A stretch of 64,000 nucleotides of DNA from NCBI GenBank assembly GCA_010093605.1, contig MU004196.1, forward strand, positions 766,606-830,605. The letters are read 5' to 3'. This DNA is from Lophium mytilinum. Lineage: Eukaryota. Position 1 is the stretch's first letter. Each line of letters opens with the position of its first letter. Both the position numbers and the translations under genes were made by a program. Shown here in pieces: positions 41,956 through 46,227 of the stretch. Under the pieces are notes generated by a model. That model saw only the letters and a program-made list of their open reading frames with translations. It had not been told where the DNA came from and did no database searches.

Positions 41956-43771
41956 GGGTTGTAGGAGGGATGTATTCATATTACGGGAGCAGGAGACAGC
42001 ATCATCGCTAAGGTCATGTCTTTTCTGTAGAAGGTCCTAGAATTAGGACCAAGGAGCCAGCGTGCGAAGTTCTCAGTAAATCAAGATACCCCTAGAGTGC
42101 TTCAATGCTCTAATGTACAATTCGTCCCCTAAGACCAATCCTCGCAGCTTAAGAACAGTCTCCATCCCGCTATGAATCCCAGCCGATGTTTACTCGCTGC
42201 ATTACGAACAAGACCATGTTTCATTCTCTGTTTGCTACGAGGAATCACAAGCAAAGATACTTCCCACCGCTACACCTGATCACACCAAACCCTCCTCCCA
42301 CCCACGTGACAGTAAGTCTTCGACAACGTATAGAAGATTCCTCTTCTCCCGCCAGTCTCAAAGATTAAGGCGGGGGCAATGTCTGCAGCATAAACAGTGA
42401 AAACTACTTCACCAAATGGCTGTAAAAAGCAAGCCGGAAGAGACAAATGGAGGTTGTGCTTCGCGGGCAGCAAAATGCAGCAGGACCCCCAGGAATGGAC
42501 TGGCGGCAAAGCGACAGTACCAGCAGTGATGATGCTGAGCGTCAGGTCCAGTAGTTGTATCTCAATAGAGGGACAGTAAAGATGCCTACCATATTAGGAC
42601 AGTGGCGATGGGCCTCATCAATAGGTGAGCAAAGTTTAGTAGAGCGAATATAGGTTCCCTGCTCCACCATCCAAAACCACGGCCATCCACCTATGAAAAG
42701 TGGATGGAATCCGTCTGGTCGAAGGAACGCGCGACGGAACGGATCTGACAGTCGTGCAGCGTCAACGGCCATAACGGCTATCCCTCGAGTCTCTGTTTGG
42801 TGCGTCCATAGCCTAGCCATTTCCTTATCATGCATATAATGCCCCCAACCCGATCTCCTGGTATGCGTCTCGATTTCGGCCTTGACATCAGGGTGGGTAT
42901 TGGCTCCATAGGCAGCTTCTTGCGGGTTCGCTAGGGCTTGTAGGCTGGCTTCTATCGTGATTCGTGCGCTGACTTCGATGATGCACCCGGTGGCGCGTAG
43001 AATGGCGGGGCCTGGACTATGGCTCTCATAGTGAGGAGGAGGCTTGCTTCGATAGTTTATTTTCTGTTGAATCTAGCTATAGTCGGGCATCGAAGGTAGA
43101 TGTAGAATGAGTACGGCAGAATGCATAGCGGGGAAGTCAACGCAGCGTTTGCTTGAGGATAATTAGGATTCGCTGAAGAACGCGGTACCTCTGGTATCTG
43201 AAGCCAAAGAGCAAGTATGGCGGGCCGCGGGAAACTCTTTGAGGACAACGTCAAGTCAGGCTCCTTGAGGTTTCGCTCGGGGCTTGTCCGGTGGGAATAT
43301 GGGCGCCATCGCCCGCAGAAGCTTAGGTGCAGCGACATGGCGAAGACAGCAAGACAGCAGTGAATGAAGCGTAGACGAGGCAAGTAGTCCACGTTTGGGT
43401 CTCTTCAGGTGAGATGGATGGGGCTTCGCTCTGGTCACGGGAGGTCTGGTGAGGCGGAGGCGTTGGACGACAGCAACACCACTCCACATCAGAGGCCATC
43501 GTGTTTTGCTAAGATTGCTCGTCAGCGGGATTCATAGATGATGAAGGGCTTCATAATGTAGGTACTCTAGCTATGTCTCGCCCACAAATGTTAACCCAAG
43601 GCATCGCACAATGGCGGTCAAGGGCGTTAAATATTGCGACCCCGCAGGCCAGCCCACGGTCGCAGCCAGCATCAACACCACGACACCATGTCGGTTGCAG
43701 AGATTTGCAGCAAAGCAGTTTCTTCTTCGAAGCCCCAGACAAGCTGAGAAGTTCAATGAAAAAAGATAGAG

Positions 43772-44013
43772 AGTTCGCGTCGGCCCGAGGCAGTGCAATA
43801 CGAGCGACACTGTGTTCCTGAACATAGGCAAGCCCAGCGGCCCAGAAACGGTTTCCAAAGACTGGATTAATCTTGAGAGATCCCGTAGGATCGTTTCAGA
43901 GATTAAACTGAAAAGAACAGATACTACACTTGATCTAAGCCAAAAGGCACTATAAAAATTGTTAGCAAAAGCACAAAACTTTGGGGGGAAGTGTCGACTT
44001 ACAAGAGAGCTGA
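43772..44013 (-). ncRNA. U2: U2 spliceosomal snRNA interrupted by a 53-nt spliceosomal intron (43950-44002)
   Basis: Minus strand reads CAGCTCTCTT|intron|TGCCTTTTGGCTTAGATCAAGTGTAGTATCTGTTCTTTTCAGTTTAATCTCTGAAA, with the branch-recognition GUAGUA and the stem-loop IV loop TATTGCACTG. Ends are approximate. Confidence 0.95.
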
Positions 44014-44661
44014 AAAAGAAAGGAAGGTCGGGGGGCGGGCTGGGTGATATACTTCGAAAAGATTGAGAGTCTTGGCGCTGACTCATCAGCGCTAGACCGT
44101 TTAACTGGGGACAGTTTAATTGGGGTTCTCCAGGCAGCAGCGTGGAATGTGGTGGAACTTTTCGACGGGATTTGTGGGGGTGCATAGTCTCACGTGCATA
44201 AATGAGCACAACTGTTTGGGATGCTTTGAAGAAGTCAATTTCCTTGGTACGTACTTGATCGATAATATCATTCTCAGATTCTCGCAAAAGTAGCAATCCA
44301 AGAATCTGGAACTCCTTCTACTTTTGGTATACATGCACTCTGAACTTGCCTAGCACCGTTTGAAGTCCTCTAAAACGCCAGGAAGAACTAGGAAGCGACA
44401 AGTTTCACAACCTGAGAGGGAGTCGTGTTACACTGTCTCTCTATGTTCCACAGAACCTCACCGCTTGCGTCTCCAGCCACCTGTCCTGTAGAATCTTCTC
44501 TCCTCGTCCAAATTGACCCTACTGACAGGAAAGACTCTACACCTGCTTAATCTACTTGCATCTGTTCAACGCTGTGTGTGATGCTACGACAGATATCAGA
44601 ACTTTGAGCAAATCTCACATTGACCGATCTGTGGAGTCAATCAACACACCGACATATCAAC

Positions 44662-46227
44662 ATGAAGCTACTACTGGACCTTCCGCCCGAGCTCCTCATT
44701 TGGACAGTTTCCTCGCTCGATCCAGTCAAGGACAGGCGAACCCTCTACAATCTCTGTCTTACGTCCAAGGCCCTTCGTCCAGTAGCCCAACCCGTATTGT
44801 TCTCCATCTTTGCCCACTACGACGAACGCCGGGAGAAACATTGCGAGGATGAGCTTGTGCCATTCTCTACACCCAAGCTGCCACTGTTCCAATTTGCGCG
44901 CACTCTCATCCTTCGTCCAGACCTGGCGCACAAAGTGCAGACTTTAGACACAAGCGCCATACGCTGCCACGAGTTCGATGGTCGTGACGAAGTAACCGAT
45001 GAGGACTTCGACATCTTGACCCAAGCTGTCCTTGGAATGTCAAGCGCAGCAAGCTGGCAAGAATACCTGAGGAATTTCGACCTTAATGCTTGCATAGGAC
45101 TCTTGATTTGTCTCCTCCCAAAGCTGGAAACCTTCAGATTCGCCGTCACCGAATTCAATACCGCCATCGCCGAAGAGTCACTGTCGTACCTAGAGTCATG
45201 GCCCGGCTCTGTCGTTCAGGGAACCGCTCGCCCTTCTCCCTTTTCTTCTCTGAGGTCCCTCCATATTACTGGGACTGGCGAGACCTACGCGTTTAGCAAC
45301 GCATTCGACCTGAACATCATCGGCCCAATCCTCTCCTTGCCCACGTTAGAGATCTTTGAGGCGGAAAATTGCTTTCGGGACGATAAATATGAATGGACCG
45401 CCGAAACCTTTCAATGCCCAGCACGTTCGTTAAACATCTCTACTCTCACCTTCACGAATAGTGCCGTCAGCAGAGCATATATGGAAAGATTGATTGCCGG
45501 GTGTCGGTCGCTGAGAAAGTTCGAATATCAAAGACGGAAGGACACTGGAAGTCTTGGATATCCCCTAAGACCTTGCAGCCTGGATGAGATATGCTCAGCA
45601 CTTCAATCCCATGCTGCATCACTCTGGCAAGTTGGATTGACAATCGATGAGGTGGAAGATTTTAACTTGAATCTGGAGTCATGCCAATACCTGAAGACAC
45701 TGCGGCTCTGGGTATATGGCGGTTCAGCTCTCAGGGCCCAGCCACTACCCCAATCACTAGAACAGCTATGGCTTAGGGGTAACCACCCCGAAGTAGAGGA
45801 CGTGTTCTCAATCCTGGACTTCCCGCTGCAGAAGAGAAGGCTTCCTTCGTTCGCCACGATTGAAGTTGACGCCACCGATTTCGGGAGCATAGTTCCGTCA
45901 GACTTTGAACATGGCGATTGGTCAGACGCTTGCTGTCGGCCACCACTCACCGAATTAGAAACTCTGAAGATGTACTACACGTGGAAGGAGGCTTGGCTGG
46001 ATGGAACGGATATAGAGCTTGTCTTCCTCAACGAACCAAGATTTCCTAATTTCGACAGCTCGTACGTTCCGTCGCCTGAAGGACTTCAGATATTTCAGAA
46101 AATACAGGACGAAGGCGTGTCCGTGAACTCCAGTTACTCTTCAGATGAAGACGAGGAAATAACGCATCTACAAACTTGTCGATTTGTGCAACGAAAGCAC
46201 GATAGCAAAGAAGACTGTCACACTTGA
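44662..46227 (+). CDS. F-box plus LRR-like protein, intronless
   Basis: MKLLLDLPPELL..LYNLCLTSKALRPVAQPVLF (F-box-like), FARTLILRPDLAHKV, and repeated LxxLxxL segments. Confidence 0.8.
   Translation: MKLLLDLPPELLIWTVSSLDPVKDRRTLYNLCLTSKALRPVAQPVLFSIFAHYDERREKHCEDELVPFSTPKLPLFQFARTLILRPDLAHKVQTLDTSAIRCHEFDGRDEVTDEDFDILTQAVLGMSSAASWQEYLRNFDLNACIGLLICLLPKLETFRFAVTEFNTAIAEESLSYLESWPGSVVQGTARPSPFSSLRSLHITGTGETYAFSNAFDLNIIGPILSLPTLEIFEAENCFRDDKYEWTAETFQCPARSLNISTLTFTNSAVSRAYMERLIAGCRSLRKFEYQRRKDTGSLGYPLRPCSLDEICSALQSHAASLWQVGLTIDEVEDFNLNLESCQYLKTLRLWVYGGSALRAQPLPQSLEQLWLRGNHPEVEDVFSILDFPLQKRRLPSFATIEVDATDFGSIVPSDFEHGDWSDACCRPPLTELETLKMYYTWKEAWLDGTDIELVFLNEPRFPNFDSSYVPSPEGLQIFQKIQDEGVSVNSSYSSDEDEEITHLQTCRFVQRKHDSKEDCHT

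Follow-up and report, generated by a model that had tools for sequence, protein, structure and literature searches.

A U2 snRNA gene of Lophium mytilinum with a probable spliceosomal intron close to its 5' end

The window, i.e. the whole 64-kb stretch of Lophium mytilinum DNA that was analysed, matches a single Rfam family. This family is U2 snRNA (RF00004), which cmscan locates at 43962..43769 on the minus strand with 128.8 bits against a gathering score of 46. The match spans model positions 1-192 and is reported as complete and untruncated. Within it, the branch-site-pairing GUAGUA (GTAGTA at 43927-43922) and the conserved GAUCAAGUGUAGUAUCUGUUCUU block are identical to the RF00004 consensus. 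The Sm-site region UCUUUGG (43861-43855) and the 3' stem-loops are aligned with high posterior probability, the U run of the Sm-site region being slightly weaker than the consensus. The predicted 5' end of the gene (44011) lies 62 nt upstream of the U2 body. On the minus strand, TTTTTC is followed there by a putative first exon, AGCTCTCTT, then by a putative intron reading GTAAGT CGACACTTCCCCCCAAAGTTTTGTGCTTTT GCTAAC AATTTTTATAG, and then by exon 2, TGCCTTTTGGCTTAGATCAAGTGTAGTATCTG.

An earlier note on this DNA had described such a split of the U2 gene on the minus strand, at 43950-44002, with GTAAGT, GCTAAC and TATAG as landmarks. Our reading agrees with it to the base, with an exon 1 of 9 nt, and the canonical donor, the branch site at 43961-43966 and the acceptor that it had named can all be read on the minus strand. 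The features of the locus, all on the minus strand, are listed below in the order in which they would be transcribed.

44090..44094, minus strand: upstream TAGCG box, a candidate snRNA promoter element, 83 nt before exon 1
44046..44051, minus strand: TATA-like box TATATC, 40 nt ahead of exon 1
44012..44031, minus strand: pyrimidine-rich tract (90% C/T), just before the putative transcription start
44003..44011, minus strand: putative exon 1, AGCTCTCTT, 9 nt, its start at A 44011 inferred from promoter spacing
43950..44002, minus strand: putative intron of the spliceosomal type, 53 nt, recognised by its sequence signals
44002-43997, minus strand: 5' splice site GTAAGT
43988-43983, minus strand: C run within the intron
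43966-43961, minus strand: branch motif GCTAAC, in which the branch A (43962) is 12 nt away from the 3' G
43952-43950, minus strand: 3' splice site TAG, exon 2 beginning at 43949
43769..43949, minus strand: exon 2, the U2 body, from the RF00004 alignment, its 3' end being the end of the model
43949-43934, minus strand: the part of exon 2 that forms the rest of stem I, from the RF00004 alignment
43717..43765, minus strand: conserved hairpin of the 3' flank, just beyond the Rfam 3' end of U2

A 241-codon open reading frame at 43571-44296 on the minus strand overlaps the entire U2 gene and is almost certainly spurious. The adjacent 535-codon open reading frame at 44620-46227 on the plus strand resembles ascomycete F-box/LRR proteins, a similarity that assigns the window to Ascomycota.

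By its signals the putative intron is of the U2 type (GT-AG), with a GTRNGT-like 5' splice site, a CTRAY branch motif and a YAG 3' splice site. Its GTAAGT fits the consensus of the 5' splice site at all six intron positions, and the branch motif can pair with the GUAGUA of U2. The 64 kb contain a single match to a strict pattern, GTAAGT-N20-50-CTAAC-N5-20-YAG, and this match is the putative U2 intron. For the shuffled window the expectation is 0.13, and at least one match was obtained in 10 of 100 shuffles. Since these shuffles match the strict pattern as well, the splice signals alone are only mildly unusual. The exact 11-mer AGCTCTCTTGT, in turn, has a single occurrence in the window, at 44011-44001. 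Simple arithmetic gives a chance of about 62 x 4^-11, i.e. about 1.5e-5, for finding it in the 62 nt that precede the U2 body. It is the placement of exon 1 together with the signals, and not the signals themselves, that exceeds chance, and the argument depends mainly on the comparative data described below.

When the unspliced precursor (44011-43920) is folded to minimum energy, the stretch CUUGUAAGUCGACACU, which covers exon 1 and the 5' splice site, pairs with UUGGCUUA of exon 2 and with CAAG of stem I. Folding of the precursor has a z-score of -1.80, and 7 of 200 shuffles fold equally well.

The effect of removing the intron was assessed with an nhmmer profile built from 28 distinct uninterrupted fungal U2 genes. 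The window was scored both in its unaltered form and with 44003 joined to 43949. The unspliced DNA yields 151.9 bits, in an alignment that begins only at profile position 10. The sequence spliced in silico yields 166.3 bits over profile positions 1-192 and starts exactly at A 44011. Hence the conserved 5' end of U2 is not contiguous with the body in the DNA, profile positions 1-9 sitting 53 nt upstream. Removal of the intron gains 14.4 bits and restores the fungal U2 5' end, as the earlier note had claimed, and the same 13-mer results in 20 other loci listed. That note had also expected that the score would not worsen upon removal. This expectation holds, here with the fungal nhmmer profile in place of the covariance model.

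A gene without any intron would have to start transcription inside the putative intron, at about 43962, and the upstream AGCTCTCTT with its splice-like signals would then be due to chance or be a relic. Such a gene would agree with the complete cmscan match over 1-192 that starts from 43962, and the matches of the strict pattern in 10 of 100 shuffles speak in its favour, too. In the cmscan alignment the lower helix of stem I can also be formed with UUU from the intron's own 3' end. Because acceptable stem I pairs arise in this way, the covariance model alone cannot discriminate between the two possibilities. However, the first 12 positions of the RF00004 model are placed over ACAAUUUUUauaG at the 3' end of the intron, an unrelated sequence with few identities and a 3-nt insertion, and positions 1-9 of the fungal profile are left unmatched in the unspliced DNA. 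If the intron is real, cmscan hides the split 5' end, because the match is reported as complete while it runs into the intron. The earlier warning that so small a first exon is easily missed by annotation pipelines is illustrated by this apparently complete match. Here the covariance model takes up a piece of the intron at the expense of the true 5' end, and U2 5' ends are probably wrong in many fungal annotations.

The spacing of the promoter elements is a further argument against a start inside the intron. In uninterrupted genes, a TATA box recognised by a regular expression lies 37-57 nt before the first nucleotide of U2 (A1) in 27 of 33 cases, compared with a distance of about 90 nt that a start at about 43962 would impose on the TATA-like box of the window. 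Among the 21 intron-bearing genes, the regular expression matches in only 9, which we counted against the intron, and in these the box lies 38-45 nt before A1. TAGCG is present at a distance of 50-110 nt from A1, on its upstream side, in 20 of 32 fungal U2 loci that are uninterrupted and in 14 of 20 that bear an intron, with a chance expectation of about 0.06 per locus; the median distances are 70 nt and 65.5 nt, respectively. The 20 nt before A1, which form the pyrimidine-rich tract in the window, consist on average of 91% pyrimidines in uninterrupted genes (n=34). If transcription started inside the intron, an extra 50-66 nt would separate the promoter elements from the body in comparison with uninterrupted genes, and this is not seen. 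In intron-bearing genes the promoter elements are spaced from exon 1, not from exon 2.

At the other end of the gene, the T-rich arm CTTTTTCAT of the 3'-flank hairpin pairs with GAAGAAGAA around an inner stem-loop. An alignment analysed with RNAalifold shows the hairpin in 16 of 16 ascomycete-type loci (the window and 15 others), with an inner stem that varies by compensating changes. BLAST alignments of many loci extend to about 43716-43720. The hairpin may be a signal for 3'-end processing or an extra terminal stem of the mature RNA. RNase III-type processing of hairpins is part of snRNA maturation in yeast.

Related genes were sought in public metagenome contigs with a 34-mer of exon 2. This search required the intact 34-mer and found at least 116 loci with at least 118 matches; the 34-mer spans the reported site of the U2 intron of the Rhodotorula hasegawae type, and the scan is blind to introns there. 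The 118 matches listed fall into four classes according to their 5' ends.

Basidiomycete-like, uninterrupted: 47 matches
Ascomycete-type, uninterrupted, with AGCTCTCTTTGCC or near variants: 43 matches
Intron-bearing: 20 matches
Other or cut off: 8 matches

With the window and the 20 intron-bearing loci among the matches listed, 21 putative introns can be compared. They measure 51-66 nt, end in AG without exception (21/21), and in all of them a CTRAY branch motif precedes the 3' end by 10-19 nt. Their 5' ends read GTAAGT (9), GTACGT (5), GTCAGT (4), GTATGT (1), GTTCGT (1) and GTCCGT (1). Exon 1 comprises 11 nt in nine genes, 6 nt in five, 7 nt in three, 9 nt in two (the window and locus L029), and 5 nt and 10 nt in one gene each. 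In all 21 genes joining of the exons restores the 13-mer AGCTCTCTTTGCC, which is the 5' end of 34 uninterrupted loci. That six different cut points give one product is difficult to account for by anything other than selection on the RNA after joining. An exon 1 of 5-11 nt is very short, which we counted against splicing. Nevertheless, a U2 gene of the window without an intron appears extremely improbable to us, given that the 20 further loci among the matches listed, with their six positions, all restore the same 5' end.

For the structural context of the cut points we used the structure line of RF00004, in which A1 of the uninterrupted relatives aligns to model position 3. The cut points, which follow nt 5-11, are all located within the 5' strand of stem I or immediately ahead of it; that of the window falls between the bulged U9 and U10. 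This agrees with the earlier assignment of the intron to the region of U2/U6 helix II and stem I. The 5' strand of the stem I region of U2 forms helix II with U6. None of the intron sites coincides with the helix I or branch-pairing nucleotides of U2.

Judged by its sequence, the locus is very probably a working ascomycete U2 gene, in which a 9-nt exon 1 and a 53-nt intron precede the body and splicing yields the normal fungal 5' end. Most likely, RNA polymerase II would start at A 44011, about 40 nt past the TATA-like box. The resulting capped U2 precursor would carry the 9-nt first exon and the 53-nt U2-type (GT-AG) intron. The major spliceosome would then remove the intron and join AGCUCUCUU to UGCCUUUUGGCUUAG, and the mature U2 would have a length of about 190 nt. 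In this RNA the 5' strand of stem I, the partner of U6 in helix II, would be regained. New U2 would depend on existing U2 snRNPs, and this would be a positive dependence rather than an obvious homeostat. A requirement of U2 for its own production, as predicted from these genes, would link the snRNP supply to splicing capacity; autoregulation, as proposed in the earlier note, would be a conjectural use of this link. The intron would belong to a widespread set of U2 introns near the cap, carried by fungi whose U2 has the AGCUCUCUUUGCC-type 5' end. With a 5' splice site this close to the cap, one may ask how the U1 snRNP and the cap-binding complex share the space, and whether the C-rich block found in these introns helps.

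The locus could also be a minor, variant or decaying U2 copy, with the U2 of the cell supplied by an uninterrupted gene elsewhere. Both uninterrupted and intron-bearing U2 genes do occur among close relatives, and fungal U3 paralogs within one species can differ in the presence of an intron (PMC5832005). Against this stands a body that scores 128.8 bits and has all conserved elements, together with promoter boxes and a conserved 3'-flank hairpin that have been kept. In the 20 other loci among the matches listed, the splice signals are constant over introns that have otherwise diverged, and three tandem copies on one contig (L062-L064) all have introns. We therefore consider a minor or decaying copy improbable and continue with the reading of a working, spliced gene.

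The three tandem genes just mentioned lie about 1-1.7 kb apart on a metagenome contig of 17.5 kb. Each has its intron after nt 11. The lengths of these introns (66, 51 and 63 nt) and also their sequences differ.

An alignment of the 21 introns with MAFFT shows constant ends and a constant branch motif around a variable middle, the interior of the intron in the window being 32-55% identical to the others. A common layout is nevertheless discernible across the position classes. In the MAFFT alignment, which includes the introns L004-L115, a C-rich block, which begins about 12 nt past the 5' splice site, is combined with a branch site of the (T)GCTAAC type. CCCC at +7..+30 is found in 16 of 21 U2 introns (16 of 20 distinct sequences) and in 1 of 37 intron-like candidates of the window that were defined by loose signals. 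The C-rich block is equally well placed with respect to the transcription start and to the 5' splice site (standard deviations of 3.5 and 3.3 nt, respectively), and it may act in the DNA or in the RNA. That the introns have this block in common points to shared descent or to a shared function. Locus L029, which has the same cut position as the window, can be aligned by BLAST from 44035 to 43709 through the intron, with 70.4% identity over 341 columns. The BLAST alignments of two position-7 loci (L028 and L050) reach 18-27 nt into the position-9 intron of the window.

An origin of the intron from a duplicate of the gene's own segment between TATA box and transcription start was considered as well and rejected. 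The local alignment of each intron with its own upstream region scores 12.4 on average, compared with 12.3 (standard deviation 2.8) for the upstream regions of other loci.

A maximum-likelihood tree was calculated from 65 U2 bodies. It is based on 185 columns and leaves 34 of 60 inner branches open, and for this reason it cannot settle the number of intron gains. Eight of nine position-11 genes belong to one supported clade. The window is located in a supported clade of 16 rows, which mixes uninterrupted genes with position-6, position-7 and position-9 genes; therefore, the presence and the position of the intron change among close relatives. The window and L029, both with position 9, are not sisters in this poorly resolved tree.

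Regarding the origin of the U2 introns, we lean modestly towards one or a few old gains that were followed by losses and by small shifts of the boundaries (from nt 5 to nt 11). Independent insertions at six positions, for instance by reverse splicing of excised introns into U2 within the spliceosome, seem doubtful to us. In their favour, position classes other than nt 11 are scattered on the U2 tree, where the window and L029 are separated. Moreover, reviews cite snRNA introns as support for reverse splicing (PMC5855946), and intron sliding is called rare in yeasts (PMC5832005). On the other hand, the C-rich block, the TGCTAAC-type branch site and a length of 51-66 nt are common to all position classes, and the C block is nearly absent from the ordinary intron-like candidates of the window (1/37). 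Alignments of the position-7 loci run into the position-9 intron, and the tree contains too little signal to force separate origins. The site in helix II and stem I lies away from the catalytic nucleotides. Given this location and the apparent kinship of the introns across position classes, a common explanation for snRNA introns, namely their reverse splicing near the catalytic core, has no specific support here.

A more far-reaching version of the preferred history is that a large part of the filamentous ascomycetes produces U2 by splicing a precursor with a first exon of 5-11 nt, that the intron in it is one ancient element which slid across at least six positions within 7 nt, and that the conserved C-rich element is needed for splicing near the cap. 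We put this forward tentatively, as a possibility that falls short of an even chance. Sliding is conceivable since a non-coding gene has no reading frame to keep. If it took place, the U2 supply would be coupled to the activity of the spliceosome throughout a major group of fungi, and Rfam-based annotation would mis-set the U2 5' end in all genomes concerned. Six cut points within 7 nt that lead to one mature RNA are in any case a rare natural series for comparing intron sliding with repeated gain, free of the constraints of a reading frame.

Full-text literature searches, which leave out most subscription journals, revealed no 5'-terminal intron in a fungal U2 gene. In the basidiomycete yeast Rhodotorula hasegawae, Takahashi et al. 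are said to have found in 1993 a U2 intron just downstream of the branch-site-pairing sequence. As in R. hasegawae, the gene of the window has a canonical spliceosomal intron in a fungal U2, so that maturation needs splicing. In contrast to that reported location, the introns described here lie 5-11 nt from the cap in ascomycete-type genes, and they occur in many lineages and at shifted positions. In PMC5855946, spliceosomal introns are assigned to U6 of several fungi, with those in U2, U1 and U5 attributed to R. hasegawae only, and most snRNA genes with introns are described there as lacking experimental validation of splicing.

The U3 snoRNA genes of fungi, with their 5' intron, offer the closest parallel (Myslinski et al. 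1990; Canzler et al. 2017, PMC5832005). The latter work describes U3 introns in most Pezizomycotina, almost exclusively in the 5'-most stem-loop and at clade-specific positions, and reports that their splicing was shown in S. cerevisiae and N. crassa (PMC5832005). Like U2, U3 is a small RNA that is transcribed independently, from a TATA-type promoter, and has a trimethylguanosine cap and a canonical intron near the cap. The intron position of U3 varies a little between clades, close relatives differ in intron presence, and both sliding and repeated insertion are considered. U3, however, belongs to another RNA family and acts outside the spliceosome, so that no self-dependence arises.

Fungal U6 introns resemble those of U2 in that a spliceosomal RNA gene is interrupted by introns with canonical signals that are otherwise unconserved and vary in presence and position (Tani and Ohshima 1989, 1991; Canzler et al. 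2016; cited in PMC5855946). In contrast to U2, U6 is a polymerase III gene, and its introns concentrate near the catalytic core, i.e. at the ISL and the ACAGA box; this concentration is the reason for the idea of reverse splicing (PMC5855946). The U2 introns described here are located at the extreme 5' end and have internal features in common across their positions. According to PMC5832005, frequent interruption by an intron has so far been known, among small structured RNAs, for U3 and U6 only. The U2 genes extend this group beyond U3 and U6.

Several further loci deserve a short description. The 47 basidiomycete-type loci (e.g. L002, L009 and L020) have the 5' end CCTTACCACTCTGGCC, which is uninterrupted in all 47. 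About 15-20 nt ahead of their TATA box stands a conserved GGTCCGTGCGC box, which is probably a lineage-specific snRNA promoter element. In L059 (1-153), a branch-like GCTAAC and an AG stand directly before GCC, and the contig opens with GTACAA followed by a C-rich block. L059 may contain a 153-nt intron, the first exon of which was lost at the contig end. In L047 (300-400), TTCAG precedes a divergent 5' end. On each of the contigs of L032 and L056, two uninterrupted U2 genes are arranged head-to-head in inverted orientation, about 230 nt apart.
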